From Candidatus Desulfatibia sp. (GTDB lineage: Bacteria > Desulfobacterota > Desulfobacteria > Desulfobacterales > UBA11574): 47,494 nt of DNA. Below the pieces are notes generated by a model. It ran no database searches. It had not been told where the DNA came from and saw only the letters and a list, made by a program, of their open reading frames with translations. The DNA lies in the NCBI RefSeq assembly GCF_036446775.1, contig NZ_JAZFTO010000315.1, positions 1 to 47,494 on the forward strand, given 5' to 3'. The translations under genes and the position numbers were made by a program. Each line of letters opens with the position of its first letter. Positions within the stretch are counted from its first letter, which is position 1. Below are positions 1,971 to 47,494 of the stretch, piece after piece.

Positions 1971-2133
1971 TTCGACAAAAAAATGACACCCACCCGTTAT
2001 GGATTGACATGATCTAAGTTTCTCCTTTTCTATTCCGCCTACCAAATATATTATTTAACCTATTAATATCAATATATTATTCAGTTATTACCGCCGGGCG
2101 GGTTCTCTGGCACAATATTTGAATATCAGTATT

Positions 2134-2339: not shown

Positions 2340-2457
2340 TTACTTACAACGGCTGAAAATACAAAATACTCTCAAAAAAAGTGGCGTTTTGCAAAGGCAT
2401 CTGACGGGATCTACGCGAGACCTTTGACAATCTGCGGGGCATTGCAAGTTAAAAAGA

Positions 2458-28980: not shown

Positions 28981-30990
28981 TTAGAGAAGGTTTAAGTTCC
29001 AATTCCAAAGTCCGGGCCTTTTTTTCATTTTCACTCCCCTGGGTAAGGGTTCAATCAGATGTACAAACAGACTGTAACCTGCTTTCATTAATAAATCCTG
29101 CTGGGCCCTGATGTCCAGTTCCCAGTTGGGGAACATCCAATAGTCTGAACCATATTGTCGAACCCAGGCTTGCTCGCCCTTGGGGCTGGTAAACGGTTGC
29201 TTGGTTTTCAAATTTTCCACAAGTGTGCGCGATACGCATAAAGGCCAGTTGCCGGCTGTAACGATACCTACCGGCAGGGGGCTGTGCTTGGGCAGTAATA
29301 AATAATCTTCCCGTCCCAGTTCCGGACTGACGATGACCCCGTTAAATCCCAGAGATACCAGGCTGCTAACCGCGAGAGGATTGGTGATATTGCAAAACGG
29401 ACCGGCCCAGAGATTTAAACCTTTGGCCCCGGTAAAAAGCGCTATCTGCCAGGGGGAATTAAGGACAAAATTCCGTCCCCCCTTTTTAAGGACAAAATCG
29501 ACAACCCCCTTTATTTTGGTCTCAGCTTCAGGCCAGATTACAGGCGGCAACCACCACCAAAGTTTGGACACAAGGCCCCTTTGTATCCCTGCCGGGTTTT
29601 TGATCGGCAGCCAGGTCCCGGTTCGTCCCCGGAGCTTTTTGTTGCCAATCTTTCGGTATACCTTTAGTTCAAAAGCTAAGGATCGTTTTCTGGATCTTTG
29701 CGGCAGCCTGGCACAAAAATTTGAAGCATCTACCTGCGACTTTGGAATTTTGTCAAGCTCACCTTCAAGCGCCGTCAACATATTCTCAAGCGTTTTATCG
29801 CGTCTGTCCGTTAAAAATACCGGAGTCCCCGTGGCGGGACTTTTTTTTGAAACAATTTTTAAAAACAGACGCCCTTTTTTAGGAATGAACCTGCGGACCC
29901 TGCTTTTGCCGTGCCACGGCTCATCCTCATAACCGATGCGCAGGGTATCGCCGCATAAAAGTTCCTCTCTGGCAACAATAAACGGTTTTTCTCTCGTCCC
30001 TTTTACGTTTCCAACAAGCAACCCGGAGCCGGTTTGTACGTCGACTTTGACCGGACTTTGAGGTCTTTGCGGCAAAAAATTATAATGGGTTCCAGTACGC
30101 CCTAAAGCCCCGGCAAGGAGTTGCAGAGCCTCTTTTTTCATTTTAGGATCGCTGCCCTGATCCCTTAACATCCGGTAGGCCTGAACCGTATTAAAAACAT
30201 AATGGGGACCTTTTTTGCGGCCTTCAATCTTCCAGGCCCGCACCTGCGGAATGGACAAAAGAATTTTGACCAGCACATCTACGCTGAGATCCTGGCAGGA
30301 AAAAAATTTGGCGGTCTGCTTGTTGTGCGAATAAAGCCGGCGGCAGGGCTGAACGCATCTGCCCCTAAGGCCGCTCTTTCCGCCCAGATAGCTGCTCCAG
30401 TAGCACCTTCCGGAAATCCCGTAACACAGGGCCCCGTGGATAAATACTTCCAGATCCAACCCCTTTGGACAGGCCAGGGCCAGGGCCTTTATCTCGTCTA
30501 TGGAAAGCTCCCTGGGGATAACGATACGGTCCACATCAAGCTTTTTGCGCACAAGTTTCAAAGCTGCATTAAAGCTTACATTGGCAAGTGTCGATAAATG
30601 CAGCCGGCCGGCATAACCTGTTTGCCCGGCCAGCTGCACAAGGGACAGGTCCTGGATGATTATAGCTTCGGGCTTCACCCGCTTTTTCAATTGTTCCAAA
30701 AATCGACCGGCATGATCCAGATCATCGGGCTTTAACAGTGAGTTTAATGCCACATGGACCTTAATCCCTTTGTCACGTGCCATCTGCGCCAGGGATACCA
30801 GTTCCTCGAGTGAAAAGTTCTTAGCTTCCATGCGGGCCGAAAAGTGCTTCAGTCCCAAATATACGGCGTCGGCCCCGGCCGCCATGGCTGCCAGAAAGGA
30901 TGCTTTATTTCCAACCGGTGCCAGAATGGACGGTTTTAGGGATGGCTCTGTTGCTCGCTTCATACAGGTATTATATTGACTTTTATTCAT
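28981..30990 (-). CDS. U32-family peptidase-like protein (long form with C-terminal extension)
   Basis: 669 aa. ILAPVGNKASFLAAMAAGADAVYLG..FSAR, EVFIHGALCYGISGRCYWSSYLGGKSGLRGRCVQPCR (U32 Cys-rich signature). Confidence 0.85.
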   Translation of the reverse strand: MNKSQYNTCMKRATEPSLKPSILAPVGNKASFLAAMAAGADAVYLGLKHFSARMEAKNFSLEELVSLAQMARDKGIKVHVALNSLLKPDDLDHAGRFLEQLKKRVKPEAIIIQDLSLVQLAGQTGYAGRLHLSTLANVSFNAALKLVRKKLDVDRIVIPRELSIDEIKALALACPKGLDLEVFIHGALCYGISGRCYWSSYLGGKSGLRGRCVQPCRRLYSHNKQTAKFFSCQDLSVDVLVKILLSIPQVRAWKIEGRKKGPHYVFNTVQAYRMLRDQGSDPKMKKEALQLLAGALGRTGTHYNFLPQRPQSPVKVDVQTGSGLLVGNVKGTREKPFIVAREELLCGDTLRIGYEDEPWHGKSRVRRFIPKKGRLFLKIVSKKSPATGTPVFLTDRRDKTLENMLTALEGELDKIPKSQVDASNFCARLPQRSRKRSLAFELKVYRKIGNKKLRGRTGTWLPIKNPAGIQRGLVSKLWWWLPPVIWPEAETKIKGVVDFVLKKGGRNFVLNSPWQIALFTGAKGLNLWAGPFCNITNPLAVSSLVSLGFNGVIVSPELGREDYLLLPKHSPLPVGIVTAGNWPLCVSRTLVENLKTKQPFTSPKGEQAWVRQYGSDYWMFPNWELDIRAQQDLLMKAGYSLFVHLIEPLPRGVKMKKRPGLWNWNLNLL

Positions 30991-31073: not shown

Positions 31074-31499
31074 ATGCCTGTAAAGAAAAGTCCGACAGAC
31101 CGAAGACGTTTCATCTCAATGGTGTCCGGGATGCTTTCCGGTCTCCTGCTGACAAAACCGGGAAGTGTGCGGGCCACAAAATCAGAAATTAAACAATTCC
31201 TGGCAAATATTGAGACTGACTTGCTGGTAAGATCCAAACCCTCAAAGCACCCTGCCGTCACTTGGGAACATTATGGAGACGGAATCCGTCTTTACAAAAA
31301 GAACCAGGTAAAAAATATTCCATTTTGCGCCACGAACCGGGTTGGCAAGACCATCTGGGAACACTGTAACGGCATAAATACTCCCTGGGAGATCTCCGCA
31401 TTTGTTCATCAGAAATATCTTGTCCCCCGCCAACAGGCCTATGCTGAATGCCTTGCTTTCATAGCTGCCCTAAAAACAAAAGAAGCGGTCCTACTGTAA
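31074..31499 (+). CDS. PqqD/RRE-like protein with an N-terminal twin-arginine (Tat) signal peptide
   Basis: 141 aa. SPTDRRRFISMVSGMLSGLLLTKPGSVRA-TK has the RR-x-F-I motif, a mild hydrophobic core and a V-R-A cleavage-type site. The C-terminal ~85 aa have the PqqD layout: beta strands VTWEHYGDGIRLY, then NRVGKTIWEHCNGINTPWEISAFVHQKY....AYAECLAFIAALKTKEAV. Confidence 0.7.
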   Translation: MPVKKSPTDRRRFISMVSGMLSGLLLTKPGSVRATKSEIKQFLANIETDLLVRSKPSKHPAVTWEHYGDGIRLYKKNQVKNIPFCATNRVGKTIWEHCNGINTPWEISAFVHQKYLVPRQQAYAECLAFIAALKTKEAVLL

Positions 31500-31503
31500 G
31501 ACC

Positions 31504-31788
31504 ATGAACGCTGCCCAACGATATATAAAAAATAACAACATCGTTTTCAGAGAAGAGGATGACGGTGCTTTTTTGTTTGATCCGGATTCAGGCAATTTGA
31601 AATACTTGAACAACTCCGCCAAAGAGACCTTTTTGATAATAGACGGTCAAAATGATTTAAACCAGATAGCCAATCGCCTGCTGGAACTATACCCTGATGA
31701 GGACGCCGAACAGGTCCGGAATGATGTGGAAAGTTTCCTGCTGGAACTTTTGTCGAATAGCTTTGTCTTCCATACGGGAAGCAATTAA
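31504..31788 (+). CDS. PqqD-family peptide chaperone (RiPP recognition element)
   Basis: 94 aa. IVFREEDDGAFLFDPDSGNLKYLNNSAKETFLIIDGQNDLNQIANRLLELYPDEDAEQVRNDVESFLLELLSNSFV is a textbook PqqD pattern. It starts 4 nt after the previous stop. Confidence 0.8.
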   Translation: MNAAQRYIKNNNIVFREEDDGAFLFDPDSGNLKYLNNSAKETFLIIDGQNDLNQIANRLLELYPDEDAEQVRNDVESFLLELLSNSFVFHTGSN

Positions 31789-31800
31789 CCCGAGAGACCT

Positions 31801-32889
31801 TTGAAAAAGGAATTTATGGCTAATCAGGAAATAAGCTACCCGCTGACAAGCCTTTATCTTTATCTCACCGATCGCTGTAATCTAAGATGCTCCCACTGTT
31901 GGATCTCGCCCGCATTTTCACAGCTTCAGCAAAACGGCATCCCCTTGGATCCTCTGAAAAAGACAATATCAGATGCCGGAGCATTGGGCCTTAACAGTGT
32001 CAAGCTGACCGGCGGAGAACCGCTTTTATACCGGCAACTGGATGAACTACTCACATTTTTGAAATCAAAAGAATTAACCATTTATATCGAAACAAACGGG
32101 ACCCTGATAGATCAAAAGATGATCAAATCTTTCCAGGCTGCCGGGGTGGAGCAGATTTCCGTCAGCCTGGATGCAGCCACGGAAGAAATTCACAATAAAA
32201 TTAGAGGAATTAAAGGCAGCTATGCTCGCACCTTGCAAGGCCTGCACGATCTTTCCCATAGCGGCTTGCAATTCCAAATTATCATGACTCTCCAGCGCAA
32301 AAACCTCAATGAGATACCGGGTATGGTGCAATTAAGCGAAAAGTTGGGGGCCTGTTCTTTAAAAATAAATCATCTGCTTCCTTGCGGGAGAGGAAAAGAG
32401 GCTTTTGATAAAAAAGAAAATCTGGAATTGGAAGAATTAATCCAACTTTACCGATTAGTACAAGAAAAATGGTTGCGACCGGGCACCATGGAAGTTGATT
32501 TCGATCTTCCAGTGGCGTTAAGGTCTATTGAAGATATCAAACGCAGAGGACTCAATGAATGCCGCATTCTGAATATTCTGGGGATTCTCGCCAACGGAGA
32601 CTTTTCCATCTGCGGCATCGGCCAGACGGTTGAAGAATTGCGCATGGGAAATCTCTCGCACGATTCGGTCGGCAGTGTCTGGCAAAACAATCCTATTCTA
32701 AACGAGCTGCGCCAATCCCTAACCAGCAAGCTTGAAGGAGCCTGCGGAGGCTGTATTTTTAAGTTTCAGTGCCTGGGAGGCTGCCGGGCTAATGCTTACT
32801 CTCTTACCAAGGATCTGCATGCACCGTATTTTTTGTGCCAACAATACTATGAATCCGGACTATTCCCATCATCAAGATATATCAAATGA
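31801..32889 (+). CDS. Radical SAM / SPASM-domain peptide-modifying enzyme (no. 1)
   Basis: CNLRCSHCW (CxxxCxxC). SPASM motifs C...GDFSIC (Gx4C) and CGGCIFKFQCLGGC (Cx2Cx5Cx3C) plus a trailing Cys (FLC). The start is either TTG 31801 or ATG 31816. Confidence 0.9.
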   Translation: MKKEFMANQEISYPLTSLYLYLTDRCNLRCSHCWISPAFSQLQQNGIPLDPLKKTISDAGALGLNSVKLTGGEPLLYRQLDELLTFLKSKELTIYIETNGTLIDQKMIKSFQAAGVEQISVSLDAATEEIHNKIRGIKGSYARTLQGLHDLSHSGLQFQIIMTLQRKNLNEIPGMVQLSEKLGACSLKINHLLPCGRGKEAFDKKENLELEELIQLYRLVQEKWLRPGTMEVDFDLPVALRSIEDIKRRGLNECRILNILGILANGDFSICGIGQTVEELRMGNLSHDSVGSVWQNNPILNELRQSLTSKLEGACGGCIFKFQCLGGCRANAYSLTKDLHAPYFLCQQYYESGLFPSSRYIK

Positions 32890-32892
32890 GAC

Positions 32893-33804
32893 ATGGAACT
32901 AACTATAAACCTGGCCGGAACAAAGATTGATATAATCTTTGCAGGCCGGTCAAATAATGCCATACCTCTGTGTAACCACTACTTCAGGAATTTTATTCAT
33001 CCTAACAGGGGAGAAAGCGCCGCAGTCAAAATAAGTGTCTTAGAAAAAGCAACCGGCAGGTTGCCGGTTCAGGAAACAAACGGGGAACCGATTTTTGAAC
33101 AGCTGCTGTCCACCCCGGATGTGGTCCAATGGCTTAGGGAAGTCCCGCCGTACAGAAAGGATTTCCTCATCGATGAAACCACCATCTGTTCATTTTGCAT
33201 GAACGGACTGCTGCTCTTTAGCCCTGAAACTGCGATTGGACATATCTACCTTTTAAAACCAGGACCCCGGGTGTTCCGACCACTCCACCGGCTGTTATGG
33301 ATTTATTTTGCCCAGGTTCTGGGAGAAAAAAGGGCCTGTTTTGTACATGCCGCGGCATTGACCAGAAAAGCAGGCGGCCACCTTTTTTTTGGAGACTCCG
33401 GGGCCGGTAAAAGTACCCTGGCCGGCGCCTGCGGGCGCGACACCGTAATATCGGATGACAGTCCTGTTTTCCGCAAGCGCAATGGCAAATATCACGTATT
33501 CCCTTCCCCTTATCATCAGATGGGCCGGCTTAAAATTCTTAATAAGGAAACTCCTGACATATGTGCTGAAGTGAAAGGGTTATATTTTCTGGTCAAAGAT
33601 GACAACCTCTCTATTAACAAAATCTCAAAGAAAAAAGCCGTCTCCATGATCATAAACCGCTATATTCTTTTTTTCCCCTATCTTTCACCCCGGGCCAAAA
33701 GGTTGCTATTTGACCTTTTTCTTGAAGCATGCCATAATTTACATACTAATTATCTTCATTATTTGCCAGGCCGGGACGTGTGGAGTGTTATTGCCGACGG
33801 CTAA
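32893..33804 (+). CDS. HPr-kinase-like P-loop protein (HprK-related kinase family)
   Basis: 303 aa. CFVHAAALTRKAGGHLFFGDSGAGKSTLAGACGRDTVISDDSPVF mirrors the HprK core (VH...G.GVL..G.SG.GKS....L...G..L.(A/S)DD). The ATG is 3 nt after the rSAM stop. Confidence 0.75.
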   Translation: MELTINLAGTKIDIIFAGRSNNAIPLCNHYFRNFIHPNRGESAAVKISVLEKATGRLPVQETNGEPIFEQLLSTPDVVQWLREVPPYRKDFLIDETTICSFCMNGLLLFSPETAIGHIYLLKPGPRVFRPLHRLLWIYFAQVLGEKRACFVHAAALTRKAGGHLFFGDSGAGKSTLAGACGRDTVISDDSPVFRKRNGKYHVFPSPYHQMGRLKILNKETPDICAEVKGLYFLVKDDNLSINKISKKKAVSMIINRYILFFPYLSPRAKRLLFDLFLEACHNLHTNYLHYLPGRDVWSVIADG

Positions 33805-33818
33805 AACTGGAGGATGAA

Positions 33819-34217
33819 ATGACAGGCTCAAAAGAAGATAAGCAAACCACCCGGATTCCATATGAACCTCCCCGGCTATTAGATCTGGGCGGAGGGGTTG
33901 CCTATGCTAAAAGAGGAAAAGGAGGAAAAGGAGGTTGCAAGCCTGGTGGTAGCCCGGCGGGCAGGAAATGCAAACCAGGCCAATCGGCTACGGGCAGCCA
34001 ATGCAAACCAGGAGGTACGGCGGGCAGCAAATGCCAATCAGGAGGTGCGGCAGCAGGCGGCGATTGTAGGCCGGGAGGTACGGCAGCAGGTGGGAACTGT
34101 AGGACTGGAACTACGGCGGCAGGTGGGAAATGTCAGCCTGGTGGAACCGCAGGTTCGAAATGCCAAAGTGGAAGTACGGCCGGTGGCAGGTGTCGAACTG
34201 GCGCCACTGTGGGATAA
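33819..34217 (+). CDS. Candidate RiPP precursor peptide, 132 aa: RRE-binding leader plus nine Cys-containing repeat modules
   Basis: GGAGGA (33809-33814), then ATG 33819. Sequence: MTGSKEDKQTTRIPYEPPRLLDLGGGVAYAKRGKGGKGG-CKPGGSPAGRK-CKPGQSATGSQ-CKPGGTAGSK-CQSGGAAAGGD-CRPGGTAAGGN-CRTGTTAAGGK-CQPGGTAGSK-CQSGSTAGGR-CRTGATVG. Leader residues 15-24 fit YxxPxLxxxG. The ORF-track start (GTG 33780) overlaps the upstream gene and is rejected. Confidence 0.65.
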   Translation: MTGSKEDKQTTRIPYEPPRLLDLGGGVAYAKRGKGGKGGCKPGGSPAGRKCKPGQSATGSQCKPGGTAGSKCQSGGAAAGGDCRPGGTAAGGNCRTGTTAAGGKCQPGGTAGSKCQSGSTAGGRCRTGATVG

Positions 34218-34248
34218 TAATAGATAAGATGAAACCTTTGCAAAGGTC

Positions 34249-35415
34249 TCAGAATATAAACGCCCGGTACAAATCGTTACTTACTAAGCTGATAATCTCC
34301 GCAGCCCTTCTGAAGTAACCTGATCTTTTGCCGGACCATGATTTATCTTGGATTATCTGAGCCATTACCTCGTCTTTGGGAAAAACAGTCTCTTTGATAA
34401 ATTTGAGTTTATTACCTGTTCCCTCTAAATTGCAAAGCCACAAGAGATAACAAAGTTCTTCCGAAGAAAAACCCCGGATCTTCAAACGCAGGATATGTTT
34501 TTCCAGGATGCTCAGCCTGTTGATTCCCAGCTCCTGCTTGACCTGCAAGGGTACTTGCAGGTCAAAAATTCTCTCCACCAAAATCAGGGCATAAAGTACA
34601 ATTCTCTCCTGTTGCCAGAATCGGGCTCGTTCTACGACTTCTCCCCATCCGCCGGGGATGCCGGCTAATTCCAGCAGGCATTCATGCAGATCCACCAGCC
34701 AGATCAGCCGGGAATAGCTGTGCTTCAGGGCATGAGCGGCCAAAGCTACAACATTGTCAAAAGGGTCCGGAAGTAAGAGACTATCCTGTTGCTCAAAGAA
34801 GGGTACGGCCCTTTCCCACATGGGGGTAAGGTCGGCCGGAAAGATATACCGCCTATTATGAATGCGGTCCAGATTCAAGATATGGATGTGAATGTCAACT
34901 ATAAAATCACCCTTGTAAAGGATATCCGGATAGGCGGGATTGGTCGCATAGTAACCGGCTTGCCCTAACAATTGTTTAAAACCTTCTTTATGGTCCGGTT
35001 TGACCATAAAGTCCGCATCACCCAGAGGCCTGAGCCCTATGTCGCCGTACATTCTGGTAAGGGCTAAGCCCTGCAGGGCCATAACCGTAAATCCGGCCTG
35101 TTCCAGCTTGTCCGCAAGTGCCCTGGCGTTGGCAATAACTGCCAGGGTATATTCTTTGGTCTGATTATATCTGTTTTCGAGACGTTTTAAGGCCGTTTTC
35201 GAAACAGCATCACAGAGGTCCAGATCTCTCAGGTGGTAATAAAAAAATCCGGCAACCCCGTCCAGTTCCGCCAGCGCCGCTAAATTGTCCCAGGGAACAT
35301 CCTGCTTAACAAAGTGCCGCACATAATCCTTCTCAGCCCGCTTAAGATGCCGCCTCGATACGCAGCGAATAAATTTAACAATCTCCCACCAGCCTACCAT
35401 CATATATCCTCTCAA
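34249..35415 (-). CDS. Uncharacterised nucleotidyltransferase family protein (NTP_transf_5-like)
   Basis: 388 aa. GLRPLGDADFMVKPDH (G..D.D nucleotidyltransferase-type motif) and AAHALKHSYSRLIWLVDL helical domain. This family commonly accompanies HprK-like and PqqD genes. Confidence 0.65.
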   Translation of the reverse strand: MRGYMMVGWWEIVKFIRCVSRRHLKRAEKDYVRHFVKQDVPWDNLAALAELDGVAGFFYYHLRDLDLCDAVSKTALKRLENRYNQTKEYTLAVIANARALADKLEQAGFTVMALQGLALTRMYGDIGLRPLGDADFMVKPDHKEGFKQLLGQAGYYATNPAYPDILYKGDFIVDIHIHILNLDRIHNRRYIFPADLTPMWERAVPFFEQQDSLLLPDPFDNVVALAAHALKHSYSRLIWLVDLHECLLELAGIPGGWGEVVERARFWQQERIVLYALILVERIFDLQVPLQVKQELGINRLSILEKHILRLKIRGFSSEELCYLLWLCNLEGTGNKLKFIKETVFPKDEVMAQIIQDKSWSGKRSGYFRRAAEIISLVSNDLYRAFIF

Positions 35416-35433: not shown

Positions 35434-36528
35434 TTAGCCGGGAAGTCGTCCTCCTGCTTTTAAAAACCGTTTTAGACAGGCATCGGGACTTGGATGATTT
35501 TCATTTCCCAGAATCAAATATGCCAGGGCCGGACAGTTCCCCGTACAATAGTCGATATATTCGCAGCCTTTGCAAAATTCAAAATCGCTCAAAGGAATAT
35601 TGTAGCGTCCTCTCAATCGCTTAAGCTCCGGATGTTTTTGCCAAACCGTTTTGAGATCATCCCGATTGATGCGCCCCAATTCAATATGGCTCATCTGAAT
35701 GCACGGCACCAGTACTCCGTCAGCCCGCACGGCCATCGTATTCATCGGTCCGCCGCAAGCTGAAAGATATCCTCCCTCAAAGTCATCTTTTTCTCCGGTC
35801 CGCCGGGCCTCTTCCATCATATTCCAACTACCGGCCTCGGCTAAGGGGCCTGCGGTGGCGCTGATTCTTCCGTTGTATTTTTCACTTAAGTTTAAAAGCT
35901 CCTCCATCGCCATACTACGCTCTTCAACCGTAAGTTGGACCTGTTCGGCATTCCGGCGGCAAAGTCCCATATATGACGCCGCATTGGTAGAAAAATCATC
36001 AAGTCCGATATCTTCCAGCAGCAGACGGGCAATTCTATCCAACTCTCTGACATTTTTTCTGTGAATGGTAACCCTTACGGATACAGAGACACCGTGTCTT
36101 TGCAAGCACTTGATGCCCTCGATTGCTTTGAAGAAATTCCCCCGGCCCCGAAAAGCGTCATGGGTCAGCGGTATGGAGCCGTCGATGGAGACTTGAACGC
36201 CGTCGCAGCGCCCGGTCGAAGCTAAAAAAGCGGCCGTTTCATCCGCAATCAACGTGCCGTTACTTAATATATCGAACCGCATCCGGTTGCTGACAATCCC
36301 TGCTACAATTTGCCTCAAATCCTCCCGATAAAAAGGCTCTCCGCCCTGAAGAGTCACATGCAGGACCGCGCATCGATTCAACTCCTCGAAAAACTTGAGC
36401 CATTCTTCAGCGGGCAGGTCCCGGCCCACATCGCCCGCTCCGGAAAAATGGCTGCAATACTTACATCGCAGATTACACCTGTTTGTTATAGCCAGGTCCA
36501 GTGCTCTTGGCGTCTTCATTATCTTCAT
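35434..36528 (-). CDS. Radical SAM / SPASM-domain peptide-modifying enzyme (no. 2)
   Basis: 364 aa. CNLRCKYC (CxxxCxxC), GGEP motif. SPASM motifs CGGPMNTMAVRADGVLVPC (Gx4C) and CKGCEYIDYCTGNC (Cx2Cx5Cx3C) plus a distal Cys (PDAC). Confidence 0.9.
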   Translation of the reverse strand: MKIMKTPRALDLAITNRCNLRCKYCSHFSGAGDVGRDLPAEEWLKFFEELNRCAVLHVTLQGGEPFYREDLRQIVAGIVSNRMRFDILSNGTLIADETAAFLASTGRCDGVQVSIDGSIPLTHDAFRGRGNFFKAIEGIKCLQRHGVSVSVRVTIHRKNVRELDRIARLLLEDIGLDDFSTNAASYMGLCRRNAEQVQLTVEERSMAMEELLNLSEKYNGRISATAGPLAEAGSWNMMEEARRTGEKDDFEGGYLSACGGPMNTMAVRADGVLVPCIQMSHIELGRINRDDLKTVWQKHPELKRLRGRYNIPLSDFEFCKGCEYIDYCTGNCPALAYLILGNENHPSPDACLKRFLKAGGRLPG

Positions 36529-36540
36529 AAAATATTCGGG

Positions 36541-37929
36541 TTAGAATGATGAAAAAGATACTCGCTTGGCCGGTTCAGGACTTGATACTTCCGCCTTTTC
36601 CAGTTGGGGCAGGACCGTAATAATGCCGACCATAAACCAGAAAGGCTCCATAATGCGGACAATTATAAATGTGTTGGCCCCGAGGGCGTGAAACAGAAGA
36701 CCGGTGAGACCGGCCAGAAAACCGATGGTCAGTCCTTGAAGATAAGGAGTTTTAAGTTCCTTTAAATTAATAATTGCTAATTTAAAGATAGAATATAAAA
36801 GATAGATAAATGCCGTTAATCCGATAACACCCGTCTCCACCAGCACCCTCGGAAACTGCGCATCTAAGAACCTGTATCCGGTAACGCCGTATCCGAACAC
36901 AGGATGTTTGGTCCAGTCACGCAATGCATCTTGCCAGCTCCTTAACCTGGCCGAGGTGGAAGTGTCCAACCTCACATCACCTACAGTAACTTGCTGGCCA
37001 GGATGTTCGCGTTGCGTAAAAGTAAAACTGATTCTCTCTTTAACCGTCGAGGGAAGCAAAAGGGGGCTTAATGCTAAAAAAAGAAGCATTAGGCCGACAA
37101 TTATAACCCTCTTTTCAGACATCAGACCTAAAACCAGGCACGCGGGGATGAACGCCAGATAAGAAGCTCTGGACTGCGTAAAAAGCAAAGGGGGTATAAT
37201 GGCAACTATCAGAACGGCAAGCAACTGCTTTGACAACAATTTTTCAACCTTTGAAAACAATCCTGCGGTAATTGCCCCTATAAATACAAGGTATCCTCCC
37301 ATAGTGTTGGGTTCGCCGACTTCACCTTCAAACGGCGCAGAGACTCTGCCTCCGCCAGGAATCTGCAGCATCCCGATGATCGATACCACAAAACCTGTAA
37401 GCAACAAACATATCAAAAATCGATTTGCCTGCTTCAGGTTTGCAACATGATTGACTATCATAAAAAAGACGATCATGTATTCAAAATATTTTACAACAAA
37501 GAAAAAACCGGTTGTGGGAGATACTCTGCCGGCCATGATGCCGAATCCGGTTGATATAATGCATGCCAACATATAAAAAAGAATGGGCTTATTCAATGGC
37601 GTTTTCAAAACCAGCCCCAGCTCCTTGTGAACCGCGGTTTTGGCAAACCAACTGAAACCGATAACAACCAGCAGAAAGTCTTCCAGCCGCACAGTTACAC
37701 CTCTTCCGAGAGAGGCCCCCTCGGTCGTACCTACCATGATTTCAGGCGACAGCAGCATGGAAAAAATTAAGATATACAAGCCCCACTCTATGTTGATAAA
37801 GGCCACAGCAAAGATTATCAAAGCTATTAGGCCCTGAAATAGTAGGGGGGAATACATATATTGTGATGAAAGAAAGCCCAAAAAAAGGGCAACAGCCAGA
37901 AATGATATGGTCAATAAAAAGGATCGCAC
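36541..37929 (-). CDS. O-antigen ligase / Wzy_C-family polytopic membrane protein
   Basis: About 10-12 predicted TM helices. Wzy_C-type segment LLFTQSRASYLAF and periplasmic loop ...ARLRSWQDALRDWTKHPVFGYGVTGY. The ORF track extends to 38046 and overlaps the upstream gene by 115 nt. I prefer GTG 37929, 2 nt after the upstream stop; ATG 37857 is an alternative. Confidence 0.75.
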   Translation of the reverse strand: MRSFLLTISFLAVALFLGFLSSQYMYSPLLFQGLIALIIFAVAFINIEWGLYILIFSMLLSPEIMVGTTEGASLGRGVTVRLEDFLLVVIGFSWFAKTAVHKELGLVLKTPLNKPILFYMLACIISTGFGIMAGRVSPTTGFFFVVKYFEYMIVFFMIVNHVANLKQANRFLICLLLTGFVVSIIGMLQIPGGGRVSAPFEGEVGEPNTMGGYLVFIGAITAGLFSKVEKLLSKQLLAVLIVAIIPPLLFTQSRASYLAFIPACLVLGLMSEKRVIIVGLMLLFLALSPLLLPSTVKERISFTFTQREHPGQQVTVGDVRLDTSTSARLRSWQDALRDWTKHPVFGYGVTGYRFLDAQFPRVLVETGVIGLTAFIYLLYSIFKLAIINLKELKTPYLQGLTIGFLAGLTGLLFHALGANTFIIVRIMEPFWFMVGIITVLPQLEKAEVSSPEPAKRVSFSSF

Positions 37930-37931
37930 AA

Positions 37932-40220
37932 TTAAAATATATCTTGCCAGAATATTCCTAACACCAGCAAAGCCAGCGTTATGATGAGTACTACTATGGT
38001 CAAGGGTTTTATTTGAAACGCAGGCGGCAAATGTTCTTGAAACCATCTTGTTATGGAACTGCTTTGTTTATCTTCTATATCTTCTTCCGACCCATAATAA
38101 TACTGAGTATGATACTTGAAATAATCAGGACCGGCCTCCGCCTTCACGTTGTTTAAGACGACACCCCATACATTGGCATTGATATTGTCCAGGGTCGTTT
38201 TAGCGCGTTTCAATACCCCCCGGCCAATTTTTCCCACTGTGTAGACCATGACAACACCGTCTACATGCGGTCCGATTTCGGTGGCATCAACTACAGGCAA
38301 AATCGGGGGGGAATCTATAATGATGATATCATAGCTTTGATAAGCCTTCTGTAAAAGTTCAACAAACCGTTTTGAACGTAAGATTTCAGCCGGGTTGGGC
38401 GGTTTTGTTCCGGCAGTGATGATATTAAGGTTGTCCAGCCCCGGGGTTTTCAGAATTTCCTCTAATTCAAAATCTCCCAGCATGATATCTGTAATGGTAT
38501 TTATGATATCTTTATACTGATAGTTTCCCAGAACGCAATCCGTCAAACCGGGTCCTTTTTCCAATCCAAAAATCTTATGGATTACAGGTTTGCGCAAATC
38601 CGCCTCCAACAGCAGTACTCTGCTGCCCGCTTGAGCCATACTGAGCGCCAGGTTGACCGCGTTAAAGGTTTTTCCTTCTCGCACAAAAGAGCTGGTAATC
38701 AGAAACGATTTTCCTTGTTTGTCCAGACTCATAAACTCAATGTTCGATCTGAGAGTGCGGAAGGCTTCCGCGGATAAGGACTTGGGATCATAGTGAGTAA
38801 CCAATTCCCGTTCTCTTCCTGTTTCTAAAACCTGTTGACTATCACGGCTCTTGCCCGTCTCCACTTTCCCCATAAAAGGTATAACTCCCAGGACCGGAAC
38901 CTGTAGTAAATTCTCCACATCCTCTATGGTCCCCATGGAAGTATCAAACACCTCAGCGCCAAAAGCAAAAACAAACCCTACGATCAAACCCATAATAATG
39001 CCCGTAAAGATAATCATCATTTTAGAAGAGACATTGAAAGGAGCCGCAGGCACCAAAGCCGGTTTAACAATGACAACCTCCTCCACTTTGCCAGACTCCT
39101 TAATCAGGGTCTCCTGGTGTTTGGTTTTCAATTGGGAATATAAAGATTCCTGTAGTTGCACCTCTCTTTGCATTCTGACCAGCTTCAGAGCCTTTTCCGG
39201 AAGGCTCCGGCTCTCTTTCCTCAAACGATTCAGCTTTGTTAAAAGATCAGCTTCGCGTTTTGCTAAAATACTTGAAAAGGCCTCAAGCTCTTTTCTTATC
39301 TCAAGAATTATGGCTTGAATCTGATCATTTACCCCGACTACCTGCGGATGCTCTTTAGTAAAGTCAATCAGCAGGGTTTCCCTCTTTAAAAGCAAATCGC
39401 TCAGTTTGACCCTCAATGCATGTATAGGAGAATCTTTGTCCGGGGCAATCAAGGTTCTATTAAATTTTTCCGGAGACAAATCAGTCTTTTCTGCGATCAG
39501 TTTTAATAGCGATACAACTTCATTTTTTTGTTTTTTTGCCTTCTCATGCTCTAATTCAACATCGTACAACCGATTTAACGTATTGCTGGTTTGAGCATCC
39601 ATGGATATCAAGGCATAGCCTTCCTTAAAGGCCCGGAGTTCATCCTCTGCCTGTTGTAGGAGATTTGAGGTCAACTGCAGCTGCTTTTCGATAAAGGCCT
39701 TGGTTTCGAATGTCTTCCTGTTTTTCTCCTGGATATTGTAATTCCTATATGCTCTGGTAACAGCGTTTGCTACAAGTGCCGCTTCCTGGGCATCTCTCGA
39801 TATTACTCTGATATTAATGATATTGGTACCAGGCTCCTGTTCCGCTTTTATTAAAGCCTTCAGACGCTGGACCTTGGCCAAAAGGGATTTGGAATTGCGA
39901 ATCTTTTCAGCGGAAATATTCTTAGGAATCCAATCTAACTCCTTTGCTGTTTGTGACAGTACCGGGAAACTGGTAATAATATAAGCATGCGTAATCAGAT
40001 TTTCCGATTCCTCAAAAAATCCACCCATAAAAAAGTCCGCCATGGTTTTGGTGCGTTCGATTTTAATGGCGGCACTGGCTTCATATAAAGGAACGGGCTC
40101 ATTCAATTTTGCAAAGCCATAGCTGAAGACCCCGGCCAAAAAAGTCAGCAGTACAATAATGGTCTTTCTCTTTCTGATGATCCGCCAGTAATCTCTCAGA
40201 TCGACGTCATATTGAGCCAT
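37932..40220 (-). CDS. Polysaccharide co-polymerase / tyrosine autokinase (second Wzc-like protein) with an extra C-terminal TM segment
   Basis: 762 aa. DLRDYWRIIRKRKTII Wzz-type N-terminus, coiled-coil periplasmic domain. Kinase motifs: Walker A SSFVREGKT, A' LLEADLRKP, B IIIDSPP. Tyr cluster YFKYHTQYYYGSEED, then LTIVVLIITLALLVLGIFW. Confidence 0.85.
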   Translation of the reverse strand: MAQYDVDLRDYWRIIRKRKTIIVLLTFLAGVFSYGFAKLNEPVPLYEASAAIKIERTKTMADFFMGGFFEESENLITHAYIITSFPVLSQTAKELDWIPKNISAEKIRNSKSLLAKVQRLKALIKAEQEPGTNIINIRVISRDAQEAALVANAVTRAYRNYNIQEKNRKTFETKAFIEKQLQLTSNLLQQAEDELRAFKEGYALISMDAQTSNTLNRLYDVELEHEKAKKQKNEVVSLLKLIAEKTDLSPEKFNRTLIAPDKDSPIHALRVKLSDLLLKRETLLIDFTKEHPQVVGVNDQIQAIILEIRKELEAFSSILAKREADLLTKLNRLRKESRSLPEKALKLVRMQREVQLQESLYSQLKTKHQETLIKESGKVEEVVIVKPALVPAAPFNVSSKMMIIFTGIIMGLIVGFVFAFGAEVFDTSMGTIEDVENLLQVPVLGVIPFMGKVETGKSRDSQQVLETGRERELVTHYDPKSLSAEAFRTLRSNIEFMSLDKQGKSFLITSSFVREGKTFNAVNLALSMAQAGSRVLLLEADLRKPVIHKIFGLEKGPGLTDCVLGNYQYKDIINTITDIMLGDFELEEILKTPGLDNLNIITAGTKPPNPAEILRSKRFVELLQKAYQSYDIIIIDSPPILPVVDATEIGPHVDGVVMVYTVGKIGRGVLKRAKTTLDNINANVWGVVLNNVKAEAGPDYFKYHTQYYYGSEEDIEDKQSSSITRWFQEHLPPAFQIKPLTIVVLIITLALLVLGIFWQDIF

Positions 40221-40508: not shown

Positions 40509-42680
40509 CTATTTTGTCAATATATCAGCAGCACTGTCAAAGCCTTTAATGATGGTAGTAGGCATAAGGATAAGTTCCATAAAGGGCTTAATTCGCTTAA
40601 CAAACAGGTTTGCATCACCGATAAAACTTCGCGGTACAAACACCAGATCTCCGTTTGTCAGGGCAACATTCTGGGTCTGGTCGCCTTCCTCCATAAGTTT
40701 TTTAAGATCAGCAGAAATGACCTCGGGTCTGGTGGGGTCCCCCCTGATAATCTTGGTACTGTCCTCATGCGCGAATACGGTAACGCCCCCGGCCTGTGAA
40801 ACGACATCCAGCAGGCGCATCTCTGAACCGCTAAAAGCATATACGCCCGGCTTGCCCACTTCACCAAAGATATACACCCGATTGTCCTCTTTGGTAATAA
40901 GGGGAATATAAATTACATCACCGCTATCCAGCACCACATCCTGGCCGGTTTCACCCCGTAAAATAGCATTGAACAGGTTCAATTTTAATACCTGCCCTTT
41001 CTTGCGGCGCAAACCTACTTCAGCCAGATTGGCGTCTTGATGCAAGCTAACGTTCTGGGAAAATATTTCCACGATTGTAGTCCGGCCGGTCAGATAGTTT
41101 TTACCTCCGCCGGTTCTGCCAGCCCAGGCCGCTCCCGGCCCTAAAACTGTTACGAATTTGCTTTTATATTCCTTGACTATAACGTCCACCCGGGGATTTC
41201 TTATATACTTGACAAGCCTGCCGGTTATAATATCATCCACCTGCGAGGCGGTAAATCCGTTGACATAAAGATTGTCCACCATGTTAAACGAAATTTTGCC
41301 CGCAGGCCTAACCGTTATTAGTTCTCTGGTCGCAGTAGGTCCTTTCCACAAAGTTATTTCAATAACATCGCCGGGCCCGATTTTATACTCCGGAACCCCG
41401 GATACAGTTGTAAAGACACTGTTTTCTTCAAGTTCGGCAGAAATCGAAGGAAGTTCCGGAGCGGCAACTTTCTGTGCTTGGCGGACTCTCGATGAAACGA
41501 CACCCTTTTCTTTTCCCAGCCAGATTTTGATGCCCTCTCCAAAGCCGGCAGCACAGATATCATCGCGCCCGTCTTTATCTAAATCGGCGATCTCGATTCC
41601 ATAGAAGATACCTTTGGATGGGAACCGCCCTTTGATGGGCGTCCAGGAATCTGATCCTGCGTTTTTCCAGGCCTTGATCCCCTTAGAATTTACGGAACCG
41701 GCCAGAAGATCCATCAGACCGTCTCCATCCAGGTCAACAGCAAGGGCTTGCCAGAAGCTGTCGTTTTCTTCCAGACTCGATGTGCCGATGAAGTCTCCGC
41801 GTCCATCTCCTATAAAAATCTGAACACCTTTTCTGTAAGAGCCGGCTAATAAATCCAGCTTGCCGTCAGCGTTAACGTCTCCAACGCTCAGACCATAAAA
41901 ACTGCCTTTACGTACCGGTAAAGTCGACGACCAGCCCCCGGTACCGTCTCCGAGCCAGACCTTCAAAGCGCCATAGCTGCCCCAGCCGGCTCCCGCCAGG
42001 TCCAAAAACCCGTCTTGATCAAAATCAGCCAACGCTACATCCATGAAAATCCCTGTAACCGTAGGACCCGACTCCATAAGCCAGGCGCCTTTTCCATCTC
42101 CCAGCCAGACCTGAATACCGCCTTGGGTATCCGAGGTCGCATTGGCGGCAATGATATCCATATGTCCATCCCCATTAACATCAGCCGTCTCCACGCCCTC
42201 GTAGTTATTTATTTCGACAGGGTTGATACCTCTGAGCCACCTGCGCTCGGACTGATTCAACCACACCATAATTCCCGAGGCTTCTCTTTGAACGGACAGC
42301 ACGATATCCTTAAGTCCGTCTTCATCGAAATCCGCCACGGCAACGGATCTAACATCCCCTTTGAACGGCAGGTATTGAGGTGCAGACATATTACCGGAGC
42401 CGTCCCCATACCAGATAGCTACAGTCCCGGGGAATGTACTCCCTCCGACGATATCCGGATTACCATCGTTGTCCAGATCAGATACGGCCACCGCCCGGTA
42501 TTTTCCTGATGTGGCCAGGTCGCCGGCTTTGGCCCATTGAGCCGGTTGTTCTTGGCCTATATCTTGAGCACACCCAATAGTTAATATAAGCCCCAGCAAT
42601 CCCACATGAAACAGCAGAATTTTATAAAGGGACCTTCCAGTTTTATTAAAGTTCCTTTTCCACATTTTATAGATATACAA
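40509..42680 (-). CDS. Lipoprotein fusing a seven-repeat FG-GAP/VCBS beta-propeller to a Wza-type polysaccharide export module (Poly_export + SLBB)
   Basis: 723 aa. Signal plus Cys (LGLILTIGCAQD). Seven D-x-(D/N)-x-D-G-x-x-D repeats (DLDNDGNPD, DFDEDGLKD, DVNGDGHMD, DFDQDGFLD, DVNADGKLD, DLDGDGLMD, DLDKDGRDD). Then YKIGPGDVIEITLW (Poly_export signature) and two SLBB-like units (FVTVLG..., VYIFGEVGKPGVY...). Confidence 0.8.
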   Translation of the reverse strand: MYIYKMWKRNFNKTGRSLYKILLFHVGLLGLILTIGCAQDIGQEQPAQWAKAGDLATSGKYRAVAVSDLDNDGNPDIVGGSTFPGTVAIWYGDGSGNMSAPQYLPFKGDVRSVAVADFDEDGLKDIVLSVQREASGIMVWLNQSERRWLRGINPVEINNYEGVETADVNGDGHMDIIAANATSDTQGGIQVWLGDGKGAWLMESGPTVTGIFMDVALADFDQDGFLDLAGAGWGSYGALKVWLGDGTGGWSSTLPVRKGSFYGLSVGDVNADGKLDLLAGSYRKGVQIFIGDGRGDFIGTSSLEENDSFWQALAVDLDGDGLMDLLAGSVNSKGIKAWKNAGSDSWTPIKGRFPSKGIFYGIEIADLDKDGRDDICAAGFGEGIKIWLGKEKGVVSSRVRQAQKVAAPELPSISAELEENSVFTTVSGVPEYKIGPGDVIEITLWKGPTATRELITVRPAGKISFNMVDNLYVNGFTASQVDDIITGRLVKYIRNPRVDVIVKEYKSKFVTVLGPGAAWAGRTGGGKNYLTGRTTIVEIFSQNVSLHQDANLAEVGLRRKKGQVLKLNLFNAILRGETGQDVVLDSGDVIYIPLITKEDNRVYIFGEVGKPGVYAFSGSEMRLLDVVSQAGGVTVFAHEDSTKIIRGDPTRPEVISADLKKLMEEGDQTQNVALTNGDLVFVPRSFIGDANLFVKRIKPFMELILMPTTIIKGFDSAADILTK

Positions 42681-42754: not shown

Positions 42755-42810
42755 AGTATCGAGTATCGAGCATCAAGCATCAAGTATCGAGCATCAAGTA
42801 TCAAGTATCA
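42755..42810. repeat. Eight in-phase heptamer repeats AG(T/C)ATC(G/A)
   Basis: agtatcg agtatcg agcatca agcatca agtatcg agcatca agtatca agtatca. The last unit overlaps the stop codon of the ExeA-like gene. The array lies upstream of the FG-GAP/Wza gene. Confidence 0.8.
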
Positions 42811-43605
42811 TTCCAGATCCTCTATGGCATGCTTGACAATCTTCTTGTCGATAACCCGGACTTTCATCATCATACCGATCAGCAGGCTGCGTTCGCATAC
42901 GTTGTTTATCCTGAGCGGTATTCCTGCGGCGTAATTATAAACCGATTTGACCGCCTCTTTTGAAAAGATGCCCCGTACAGCCCCGGCCTTTTCGAGGCGA
43001 AATAATATATAGCGTATCGTATCTTGAAGATCCATGGGACTCAAATCGTATTTAATCGCAATTCTTTCTTTCAGGGGCTTAAGATTAGCAATCTTTTCTT
43101 TTAACGGAAGCTGTCCTATTAAGATCAAAGTAACCAGAAATTGGTTGTCAGATTGTAAATTGAGCAGCATTCTCAGTTCTTCAAAACTGGATGGATCCTT
43201 AATAAGATGGGCCTCATCAATAATCAGGACGGTAATTAAGTTCTGCTGAAAATTTTTTGAAAGCCTTTTCTTAAGCCGTTCTAACAGAATGGTTTTGGAA
43301 TCTTCATCAGCTGTTTCTTCCATTGCCAGCAAAATGGCCCGTAAGAAATCGACGGAGTTTAAATCCGGATTGACGATGGTTGTAACTTCAAAACGATCTT
43401 TTGAGAGGTGGTTTATTAATACCTGACTGACCGTGGTTTTCCCGGAGCCTACTTCACCTGTCAGCATAGCGGCCCCTTTACGGTGTTCAACAGCGTATAA
43501 TAGACGAATAAGCGCCTCTTCGTGTGGATTCGATTTAAAAAATAAGTTGCGGTCAGGAACATTTTTAAAGGGTTCTTCTTTGAAATTCCAATATTCTAAA
43601 TACAT
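42808..43605 (-). CDS. ExeA/GspA-like AAA ATPase (AAA_22-type)
   Basis: 265 aa. MYLEYWNFKEEPFKNVPD (ExeA-type N-terminus), Walker A GEVGSGKTT, Walker B VLIIDEAH. Confidence 0.8.
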   Translation of the reverse strand: MYLEYWNFKEEPFKNVPDRNLFFKSNPHEEALIRLLYAVEHRKGAAMLTGEVGSGKTTVSQVLINHLSKDRFEVTTIVNPDLNSVDFLRAILLAMEETADEDSKTILLERLKKRLSKNFQQNLITVLIIDEAHLIKDPSSFEELRMLLNLQSDNQFLVTLILIGQLPLKEKIANLKPLKERIAIKYDLSPMDLQDTIRYILFRLEKAGAVRGIFSKEAVKSVYNYAAGIPLRINNVCERSLLIGMMMKVRVIDKKIVKHAIEDLE

Positions 43606-47270: not shown

Positions 47271-47494
47271 TTTTTTCCTCCTTGGATGTGGTAATCAGCT
47301 CCTTTATCACCCGATTAACATCTTCTTCAGTAAGGGATGGATATATAGGAATGGATAAAGACTCCTTCCAAGCCTTTTCTGTTCGAGGAAATCCCTTCAA
47401 GCCTAAATACTGATGAAGGGGCCGGTAAACCGGCCTGGCACACCCGATCCCTTCTCCCTTAAGTTTTCTAATCCAGGAACTGGAATCGGTTCCC
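47254..47494 (-). CDS. DegT/DnrJ/EryC1/StrS-family aminotransferase, C-terminal fragment (start lies beyond the window end)
   Basis: Not in the ORF track. Reverse translation gives ...GTDSSSWIRKLKGEGIGCARPVYRPLHQYLGLKGFPRTEKAWKESLSIPIYPSLTEEDVNRVIKELITTSKEEKSEQHK*. This is the characteristic C-terminal pattern (GIG....Y.P.H......FP..E......LS(L/I)P..P.LT.EDV..V). The stop at 47256-47254 overlaps the WecA-like GTG by 17 nt. Confidence 0.7.
   Translation of the reverse strand, partial: GTDSSSWIRKLKGEGIGCARPVYRPLHQYLGLKGFPRTEKAWKESLSIPIYPSLTEEDVNRVIKELITTSKEEKSEQHK

Follow-up and report, generated by a model that had tools for sequence, protein, structure and literature searches.

A cysteine-repeat peptide gene of a Candidatus Desulfatibia contig as the probable precursor of a divergent SynChlorMet-like pathway

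In the clusters for linear polyphosphorylated peptides (LPP) of Bacillota, a YxxP-containing leader peptide is bound by a PqqD-family recognition element (RRE) for RiPPs (peptides of ribosomal origin that are modified after translation), a signal peptidase I (SpI, TIGR02228) serves as leader peptidase and the HprK-like kinase LppK polyphosphorylates Ser3 of the core; these clusters, which also hold an NTP_transf_5 enzyme and an MsbA-like pump, are located in capsule loci (Popov et al., Nat Commun 2026, PMC13381572). The motif [Y/W]xxPx[L/V/I] is described there as the generic recognition motif of discrete PqqD-type RREs, including that of LPP, which is not a lasso peptide, and the term radical SAM is absent from both main text and supplement (PMC13381572). 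In the related pathway of pseudomycoidin, the NTP transferase PsmN is needed for addition of hexose to the phosphorylated peptide (PMC6993621). A further system, SynChlorMet (SCM), is catalogued in NCBIfam, where its precursor is represented by TIGR04252 ("SynChlorMet cassette protein ScmA"), a model of 49 positions with a cut-off of 35 bits; no experimental characterization of any SynChlorMet system or ScmA-type peptide was found in a literature search. The present report concerns a small open reading frame (ORF) at positions 33819-34217, plus strand, of contig NZ_JAZFTO010000315.1 from Candidatus Desulfatibia sp., the whole stretch of which (47,494 nucleotides) is referred to as the window. 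The peptide and its cluster are a variant of the catalogued SynChlorMet system, the chemistry of which has not been characterized experimentally. With a probability of about 0.72, the ORF encodes an ScmA-type precursor of a divergent SynChlorMet-like RiPP pathway in which each Cys module would be modified by radical SAM (rSAM) enzymes before phosphate or a phospho-sugar is added.

Translation of positions 33819-34217 gave exactly the peptide described in an earlier, sequence-only reading of the window, i.e., 132 residues beginning MTGSKEDKQTTRIPYEPPRLLDLGGGVAYAKRGKGGKGG and continuing as nine Cys-initiated modules. The start codon and ribosome-binding site reported in that reading were likewise found, 14 nt and less beyond the stop codon (TAA, 33802-33804) of an upstream kinase gene. 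The features of the gene are as follows.

Positions 33819-34217, plus strand: precursor gene, ScmA-type, 132 amino acids plus stop.
Positions 33809-33813, plus strand: ribosome-binding site GGAGG, 5 nt 5' of the ATG at 33819, by direct reading of the sequence.
Positions 33819-33908, plus strand: leader, residues 1-30, from conservation, codon positions and AlphaFold2 (AF2).
Positions 33861-33890, plus strand: putative RRE-binding motif YEPPRLLDLG, residues 15-24, inside the leader.
Positions 33900-33908, plus strand: conserved leader end GGGVAYA, AxA-like.
Positions 33909-33935, plus strand: linker KRGKGGKGG, lineage-specific, arising from a tandem repeat of 9 bp.
Positions 33936-34214, plus strand: core, residues 40-132, with nine C-x-x-G-x-x-(A/P)-x(3-4) modules, from module statistics.
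Positions 33710-33738, plus strand: promoter-like site (TTGACC, 17 nt, TG-CATAAT), from a consensus scan with 10/12 matches.
Positions 34230-34251, no strand: palindromic hairpin, a possible bidirectional terminator between the convergent precursor and NTP-transferase genes.

The periodicity of Cys in the core is far beyond chance. Thus, Cys occupies residues 40, 51, 62, 72, 83, 94, 105, 115 and 125 (spacings of 11, 11, 10, 11, 11, 11, 10 and 10), none of 1,000,000 random placements of nine Cys in a 93-residue core gave spacings that were all 10 or 11, and the chance probability of Gly at C+3 in all nine modules was approximately 4e-5. These positions, the occurrence of C-x-P-G in five modules, the K, R or Q beside every Cys and the lack of aromatic residues in the core (G27 A13 T10 C9 S8 K7 P6 R5 Q5 D1 N1 V1) all reproduced what had been read from the sequence. 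The module formula proposed at that time stood, with small exceptions, position 9 being Ser in the two modules of 10 residues and Val replacing Ala or Pro in the last module. The first module, CKPGGSP, contains a conserved [S/T]-P. Tandem Repeats Finder returned both the 30-bp (3.1 copies) and the 33-bp (2.8 copies) repeat expected over the core and, in addition, a 9-bp repeat, AAAGGAGGA (2.9 copies, 33909-33934), that codes for the KRGKGGKGG linker. This linker reads KGKKGGKGG in strains of 95% identity and is missing from five relatives (loci L017-L019, L024 and L025), in which AHAASAAC or AHAASTAC stands instead. The V-A-Y-A at the end of the leader is conserved and looks like an AxA site. 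The promoter-like site, about 80 nt 5' of the ATG and within the 3' end of the kinase gene, is no more than suggestive, the counts of promoter-like and terminator-like sites in the sequence being not above those of shuffled controls. A six-frame regular-expression search of the window returned no second precursor. The AF2 model of the peptide had a pLDDT of 46 overall, with moderate confidence in the leader motif only, and the disorder predicted elsewhere fits the nature of the peptide as a substrate. A folded solenoid or antifreeze-like repeat protein was also considered and was ruled out, since AF2 yielded no fold.

On profile comparison, the peptide belongs, as a divergent member, to the superfamily of ScmA-type precursors. 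Searches with the window peptide against Pfam and NCBIfam returned no family even at E<=10, and a profile search of 1.84 billion cluster representatives returned 674 proteins at E<=1e-3, nearly all of 60-120 residues, with a (K/P)-Y-E-x-P-x-L leader and Cys every 10-11 residues. Among 32 close homologs every module (100%) had Gly at C+3, as did 93% of the modules of 129 representatives; for Ala or Pro at C+6 the corresponding values were 93% and 78%. The nine modules of the window peptide lie at the upper end of the family distribution, which has its mode at 5-6. When the window subfamily was aligned by hhalign with precursors from bona fide cassettes, i.e., cassettes in which ScmE (549 bits), ScmF (524 bits), ScmC (175-194 bits) and ScmD (about 100 bits) pass their cut-offs, a match of 98.2% probability (E 4e-14) was obtained over 92 columns that included the leader, and the alignment was in register across leader and modules. 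This match to precursors of cut-off-passing cassettes indicates that the window peptide is a divergent precursor of the ScmA type. The sequence-only reading had not recognized the core as a described class; that statement no longer holds, given that an ScmA model exists, that relatives match it weakly (15/33 close homologs, the best at E 1.9e-4 and none reaching the cut-off; among distant and close relatives, a maximum of 24.5 bits versus 35) and that the neighboring ScmE passes its own cut-off.

Two outlying groups were noted within the family. A sister subfamily has the same leader and enzyme set as the window subfamily, together with C-x-N-G-N-(K/x) modules and long poly-Gly runs, and is without the Ser-Pro of the first module. 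Two distant members, P0113 and P0112, have the leader KYEKPxLIxFDL, and a second small ORF lies beside the former peptide in L011.

L008 7334-7618, L009 2275-2655, L010 9974-10252, and L045-L049 and L051: C-x-N-G-N sister subfamily.
L011 8001-8546: distant member P0113.
L012 8001-8273: distant member P0112.

The precursor ORF is a real gene that is kept in frame and evolves fast at positions outside the module scaffold. A database search returned 32 small proteins (73-135 residues), all with the leader RIPYEPPRLFDLGGGVAYA and a variable number of C-x-x-G-x-x-A/P modules. Nowhere is the family more conserved than in the Y-x-x-P-x-L motif emphasized in the sequence-only reading; Y15 and P18 are invariant, and E16, L20, D22, L23, G24-26, A28 and A30 are present in at least 90% of sequences. 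In pairwise comparisons among 10 loci, leader differences at codon positions 1, 2 and 3 numbered 173, 70 and 475, and 376 codon differences were synonymous versus 164 that were non-synonymous; the leader is under strong purifying selection in the precursor frame. Conservation of this frame, with purifying selection on it, extends to more than 40 related loci.

In the closest relatives, with kinase genes 86-95% identical to that of the window, public gene calls over the orthologous precursors were either in the wrong frame (an ORF of 107 amino acids) or split.

L020 7012-7335: miscalled precursor region, public gene calls.
L021 2425-2748: miscalled precursor region, public gene calls.
L023 1770-2093: miscalled precursor region, public gene calls.
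L017 10888-11419: miscalled precursor region, public gene calls.

The true peptides are therefore absent from protein databases, and ScmA-type peptides are probably under-counted generally. A decoy ORF of 109 amino acids is also present in the window (33898-34227, plus strand). Translation of the orthologs in the precursor frame gave 132 residues with nine Cys for L020, L021 and L023 and 116 residues with eight Cys for L017-L019. In all orthologs examined, no frame but that of the precursor was open over the whole gene, and the decoy frame had stops in every one (two in close strains, three in the lineage of 86% identity). A metagenome scan added 28 loci, 25 with an intact ORF, two with an ORF truncated at the end of a contig and one aberrant, and the Cys count of these relatives ranged from 4 to 9. 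Two checks that had been proposed with the sequence-only reading thus favored a gene, the number of modules varying from 4 to 9 between lineages and the frame never being lost in intact loci. In the aberrant locus (L050, 2497-2574) a frameshift or deletion after the leader removes the Cys core, so that a pseudogene or an error of assembly is at hand, and the adjoining ScmF-like gene is likewise split.

Nucleotide differences between close strains (window versus L020, L021 and L023) amounted to 6.5-7.3% for the precursor as opposed to 2.4% for the adjacent kinase gene, an approximately threefold faster evolution of the former. Codon differences between these precursors were 15-17 non-synonymous versus 7 synonymous and were confined to the x positions of the modules, with Cys, Gly (+3) and Ala or Pro (+6) never altered. 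The non-synonymous excess at x positions may reflect diversifying selection or gene conversion among the repeats.

The sequence-only reading had tied the peptide to PqqD and rSAM/SPASM genes, and this was borne out by synteny across related loci; the peptide is linked invariably to genes for PqqD, rSAM/SPASM, ScmC-like kinase and PF14907 proteins. On the plus strand the order is PqqD1, PqqD2, ScmF-like rSAM enzyme, ScmC-like kinase and precursor, with the genes for NTP_transf_5 and ScmE convergent on the minus strand.

Positions 31074-31499, plus strand: PqqD1, PqqD-family RRE-like protein, 141 amino acids (Pfam PqqD E 2e-7, residues 87-137).
Positions 31504-31788, plus strand: PqqD2, discrete ScmD-like RRE, 94 amino acids (Pfam PqqD E 2.8e-11; syntenic in related loci).
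Positions 31801-32889, plus strand: radical SAM/SPASM enzyme, ScmF-like (Pfam Radical_SAM plus SPASM); the ATG at 31816, as called in orthologs, is a possible alternative start.
Positions 32893-33804, plus strand: ScmC-like P-loop kinase of the phosphoenolpyruvate carboxykinase (PEPCK)/HPr-kinase fold, 303 amino acids (AF2, Foldseek; PF27840 in orthologs).
Positions 34249-35415, minus strand: PF14907 (NTP_transf_5) nucleotidyltransferase-fold enzyme with a GDAD (D-x-D) motif (Pfam E 1.3e-43; syntenic).
Positions 35434-36528, minus strand: radical SAM/SPASM enzyme ScmE (TIGR04250, full SPASM motif).

This order, including the convergent NTP-transferase and ScmE genes, recurred in essentially every related locus with enough flank, and the place of the precursor after the ScmC-like gene was fixed in more than 40 loci. 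ScmE scored 616.6 bits on TIGR04250 (E 1.2e-185, full length, cut-off 400) and was 67-76% identical to ScmE of related loci. The ScmF-like enzyme has CNLRCSHC near its N-terminus and a full SPASM Cys motif. Both rSAM enzymes match Pfam SPASM, the motifs C-x12-G-x4-C ... C-x2-C-x5-C-x3-C ... C being readable in each, and both begin directly at CxxxCxxC, so that neither has a fused RRE. Their nearest solved relatives include the thioether synthases SkfB and CteB, together with PqqE, SuiB and anSME; models for thioether synthases scored far below their cut-offs (PapB 83 versus 340, SkfB 81-83 versus 300, StsB 94-114 versus 625, and AlbA too).

For the kinase, which had been labeled HprK-like in the sequence-only reading, the label was upheld at the superfamily level by fold. 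Thus, its AF2 model (pLDDT 87.4, pTM 0.90) matched ATP-PEPCK (E about 1e-7) and HPr kinase/phosphatase 1knx (E 1.5e-4) in a Foldseek search of the PDB, a sequence search of which returned noise only, and the P-loop (G167..K173) and D188-D189 were invariant in 54 homologs. Precomputed matches to Pfam PF27840 (ScmC) were present for orthologs of 86-95% identity and for nearly all of the 120 homologs listed. The window kinase is without the N-terminal SpI domain of canonical ScmC.

The N-terminus of PqqD1, DRRRFISMVSGMLSGLLLTKPGSVRA, resembles a twin-arginine (Tat) signal, i.e., (S/G)-R-R-x-F-(I/V/L), then a hydrophobic stretch of about 18 residues and an end of small residues. RR-x-F with the hydrophobic stretch was present in 21/21 PqqD1 homologs examined (those with the signal include L001, L006-L008, L010, L017, L020, L025, L026, L029, L030, L033, L036, L038-L041, L043, L050 and L051); the Pfam TAT_signal model matched none of the PqqD1 homologs, so that the Tat assignment is one of motif pattern alone. 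A literature search returned no precedent for a Tat-type signal on an RRE-like protein. An apparently exported RRE is unusual, and it suggests hitch-hiker export of the peptide bound to it.

Two proteases came under consideration as leader peptidases. The U32 peptidase encoded beside PqqD1 (28981-30990) was rejected, since its conservation with the cluster does not extend beyond orthologs. An intramembrane protease of the CPBP (Rce1-like) type is encoded downstream of ScmE in three lineages and is a candidate for either a leader peptidase or an immunity protein.

L001 11479-12123, minus strand: CPBP protease.
L026 14112-14753, minus strand: CPBP protease.
L036 9918-10559, minus strand: CPBP protease.

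The pathway proposed from these observations would begin with docking of the leader motif YEPPRL(L/F)DLG on a discrete PqqD-family RRE; both rSAM enzymes are without a fused RRE, and PqqD2 is presumed to be the leader-binding chaperone for them. ScmE and the ScmF-like enzyme would receive the disordered core from the RRE and act iteratively, once per C-x-x-G-x-x-A/P module, to leave one Cys-derived thioether of the sactionine or ranthionine type in each. By analogy, a thioether is the most likely rSAM product, since Cys is the invariant nucleophile and the nearest characterized relatives include SkfB and CteB. The PEPCK/HprK-fold kinase would then phosphorylate Ser or Thr, the best candidate being Ser45 in the [S/T]-P of the first module, and the PF14907 enzyme would build on the phosphate, as do the HprK-like kinase/NTP-transferase pairs of pseudomycoidin and LPP. 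On the same analogy, the earlier suggestion that Ser and Thr are targets of the kinase or NTP transferase is plausible. The leader would be cut near V-A-Y-A and the product would leave the cytoplasm, possibly bound to the Tat-signal PqqD1, and act with the co-located Wzy/Wzc/Wza glycan machinery.

Several results weigh against this proposal. The window peptide itself did not match TIGR04252 even at E<=10; precursors P0246 and P0197 of the bona fide cassettes L013 and L016 were missed as well, which indicates that the model is narrow. Three of the enzymes fell short of NCBIfam cut-offs, namely the ScmF-like enzyme (329.9 bits versus 400 on TIGR04251, its best match by a wide margin), PqqD2 (33.4 bits versus 100 on ScmD TIGR04248, its best NCBIfam match) and the kinase (17.1 bits versus 125 on ScmC TIGR04249). 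Clusters with ScmE only (L015) and with ScmF only (L002) exist, and tblastn revealed no SpI, CPBP protease or ABC exporter in the window. No rSAM/SPASM, PqqD or ScmC gene was present within 8 kb of the distant family members in L011 and L012, which may be orphan or trans-served precursors. With respect to chemistry, no thioether acceptor (Asp, Asn or Thr, for example) is conserved, the only conserved partners of Cys being Gly (+3) and Ala or Pro (+6), and the C-x-N-G-N subfamily keeps the kinase without the first-module Ser, which weakens the proposal for Ser45.

The want of a conserved acceptor side chain in the module also bears on whether the same precursor undergoes another radical reaction, i.e., oxidation of Cys to formylglycine, epimerization, formation of C-C or C-O links or condensation of a reactive aldehyde with neighboring Lys. 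This alternative, which was judged unlikely, draws further on the K, Q or R beside every Cys, on the presence of anSME (4k37, E 3.9e-7) among solved relatives of the ScmF-like enzyme and on the small residue at C+2, often P or A, that partly recalls the C-x-P/A-x-R motif. The form C-x-P-x-R had been offered in the sequence-only reading as one option and did not survive inspection: Arg at C+4, required by the anSME substrate motif C/S-x-P/A-x-R, was found in 0/9 window modules, where C+4 is G, Q, T, S or A, and few family members have it. Moreover, the anSME model was outside the best 25 matches of either rSAM enzyme, the strongest peptide-maturase relatives were of the sacti/ranthi and PqqE types and, to our knowledge, every characterized multi-Cys repeat substrate of a SPASM enzyme (freyrasin/PapB, QhpC/QhpD, SCIFF/CteB) forms thioethers.

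The fate of the modules separates the proposed stapled phosphopeptide from a multi-core or scaffold precursor, the modules of which would be modified and then cut out to yield several small products or a molecule resembling a cofactor, in the manner of PQQ, mycofactocin or cyanobactins. The freely variable number of modules (4 to 9), the possible marking of cleavage sites by the K, R or Q beside each Cys and the occurrence of the cofactor enzymes PqqE and MftC-type among the nearest rSAM relatives all speak for excision, which nevertheless appears quite improbable: the x positions differ among modules of one peptide and would lead to heterogeneous products, no protease is conserved in clusters of the window type, the first (P at C+6) and last modules are distinct in a way that suggests a single product with defined ends, and in canonical cassettes just one leader peptidase domain is encoded, together with an ABC exporter of a kind usual for the export of whole peptides. 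It is barely credible that the peptide is no RiPP substrate at all, either as an unmodified Cys/Gly-rich metal-binding or structural protein or as a spurious ORF of a stop-free tandem repeat. The repetitive DNA, the second long open frame (33898-34227) chosen by gene callers in orthologs and the two distant family members without a maturase nearby could be cited for it; with the selection on the leader, the stops in the decoy frame of every ortholog examined and the fixed place after the ScmC-like gene described above, and with no signal peptide, predicted fold or CxxC-type metal motif in the peptide, this explanation has been largely refuted already.

The association of the cluster with glycan genes was evident from its position inside a polysaccharide-export locus.

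Positions 36541-38046, minus strand: membrane protein Wzy_C, O-antigen-ligase-like; 12 nt separate its stop from the ScmE start.
Positions 37932-40220, minus strand: Wzc-type tyrosine autokinase.
Positions 40509-42680, minus strand: Wza exporter with an FG-GAP domain.
Positions 42808-43605, minus strand: XrtA-type ATPase, 199 bits on TIGR03015 (XrtA/PEP-CTERM-associated), below cut-off.
Positions 46110-47270, minus strand: WecA-like initiating phosphoglycosyl transferase (Glycos_transf_4, GT4).
Positions 47296-47487, minus strand: DegT fragment.

Given the 12 nt between the Wzy_C stop and the ScmE start, ScmE is probably in one operon with Wzy_C, Wzc, Wza/FG-GAP and the XrtA-type ATPase, and these genes make up a single string in which the NTP transferase is included; no exosortase was found in the window. 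An HD/SPOR protein, the WecA-like GT4 and the DegT fragment are also upstream of Wzy_C in the direction of transcription, the latter two being at the distal end of this string of minus-strand genes. The order ScmE-WzyC-Wzc-Wza was also found in L041 (6490-12186), the kinase of which is only 47% identical to that of the window. In five other loci a WbqC-PIG-L-DegT-GT4 set lies directly upstream of PqqD1.

L002 1108-4804: WbqC-PIG-L-DegT-GT4 set.
L010 3556-7106: WbqC-PIG-L-DegT-GT4 set.
L026 2222-6385: WbqC-PIG-L-DegT-GT4 set.
L036 179-2456: WbqC-PIG-L-DegT-GT4 set.
L046 876-4413: WbqC-PIG-L-DegT-GT4 set.

GT4 alone was found at the contig edge in L030 and L043, and the WecA-like protein of the window shared 55.5% identity with the GT4 encoded immediately before PqqD1 in L010. 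The gene set suggests a dedicated amino-sugar/undecaprenyl-phosphate glycan, and the persistence of the glycan linkage through such rearrangement speaks for a functional tie with a glycan pathway. A more specific proposal, that an rSAM-stapled phosphopeptide hitch-hikes to the periplasm on the Tat-signal PqqD1, to which its leader would be bound, and would there be O-glycosylated by, or act as primer, anchor or regulator for, the co-transcribed WecA/DegT/Wzy_C/Wzc/Wza pathway, is doubtful; if true, it would identify a ribosomal peptide component of an exopolysaccharide system and a function for the LPP/paeninodin-type kinase/NTP-transferase module. A second, separate polysaccharide-export pair, consisting of a Wza-like protein (Poly_export, SLBB) and a Wzz/GNVR tyrosine-kinase-type protein, is encoded at 837-4791 on the plus strand of the window.

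The importance of the locus lies partly in the size of the family, since ScmA-type Cys-repeat peptides (674 cluster representatives) are often missed or misframed by gene callers and are missed by the curated model, and partly in the repeated physical coupling, in this locus and its relatives, to a Wzy-type glycan pathway and a Tat-signal RRE. The pathway may also reveal a novel radical reaction at Cys, for which C-x-x-G-x-x-A would be a minimal motif.

Compared with SynChlorMet, the name of which points to strains of Syntrophobacter, Chlorobium and Methanocella, likeness is seen in ScmE, which passes its cut-off, in the other three proteins, which match ScmF, ScmD and ScmC best, in a K/P-Y-E-x-P-x-L leader followed by C-x-x-G-x-x-A repeats and in the accompanying PF14907 enzyme. 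In contrast with the catalogued cassettes, the window peptide is missed by TIGR04252 and its ScmF, ScmD and ScmC counterparts are below cut-off, the gene order is rearranged (precursor after the kinase, NTP transferase and ScmE convergent), nine modules are present as opposed to the usual 5-6, a PqqD with a Tat-like signal is added and the whole is embedded in Wzy/Wzc/Wza genes. Canonical SCM cassettes carry an ABC exporter, which the window is without, and PF14907. Bona fide ScmC, of about 500 residues, consists of an N-terminal archaeal-type SpI (TIGR02228, E 1e-9 to 6e-11) fused to the kinase, and it is this domain that the window kinase does not have.

L013 11217-12698: SpI-kinase fusion ScmC.
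L015 8918-10405: SpI-kinase fusion ScmC.
L016 7678-9222: SpI-kinase fusion ScmC.

A stand-alone SpI without kinase was noted in L014 (10914-11549) and an SpI-like segment at the start of the NTP-transferase gene in L001 (about 5491-5829, minus strand).

Among multi-Cys substrates of SPASM enzymes, which reportedly include freyrasin-type ranthipeptides (PapA/PapB), QhpC/QhpD and SCIFF/CteB, freyrasin is said to have, as the window peptide does, a Y-x-x-P-x-L-type leader and a short tandem Cys motif, with an RRE-dependent, iterative rSAM/SPASM enzyme of the kind proposed for the window. Its motif is reportedly C-x3-D with Asp as acceptor, whereas the window modules are without a conserved acidic or amide acceptor and the window encodes a kinase and an NTP transferase in addition to two rSAM enzymes.

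The leader had been called lasso-type in the sequence-only reading, a label that was abandoned in view of the generic nature of the motif among discrete PqqD-type RREs. A lasso precursor was rejected on two grounds: a Pfam search of all sizeable window ORFs revealed no lasso cyclase (Asn-synthetase-like C protein) or B2 transglutaminase-like peptidase, and the core has no macrolactam Asp or Glu at positions 7-9, its lone acidic residue, D82, being far from any plausible core start. Paeninodin and pseudomycoidin nonetheless resemble the window system in a [Y/W]xxP leader motif bound by a discrete PqqD-type B1 protein and in an HprK-like kinase that phosphorylates Ser (PMC6993621); they differ from it in that the window has rSAM enzymes and is without the cyclase and B2 peptidase.

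With LPP the window shares the grouping, in one cluster, of an HprK-like kinase with a discrete PqqD RRE and with an NTP transferase from the same Pfam family (NTP_transf_5), as well as location in a polysaccharide locus with a tyrosine autokinase. The differences are that LPP clusters as described have no radical SAM enzyme, that LPP cores are not Cys repeats, that of the LPP leader consensus YxxPxVLxHQxIxFETxxS only the YxxPxL part is shared, and that LPP comes from Bacillota and the window type from metagenome-assembled genomes of Desulfobacterota type in a cluster without SpI. Canonical SCM cassettes have the TIGR02228 signal peptidase and MsbA-like exporter in common with LPP as well, and their pairing of SpI with kinase mirrors LppS plus LppK. 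The locus joins the rSAM/SPASM SynChlorMet cassette to the kinase, NTP-transferase and signal-peptidase machinery of LPP and paeninodin, and it offers a handle on the role of phospho(glyco)peptides, which the LPP authors call unknown (PMC13381572). As judged from their gene content, SCM cassettes look like LPP-type machinery to which two rSAM/SPASM enzymes and a Cys-repeat core have been added.

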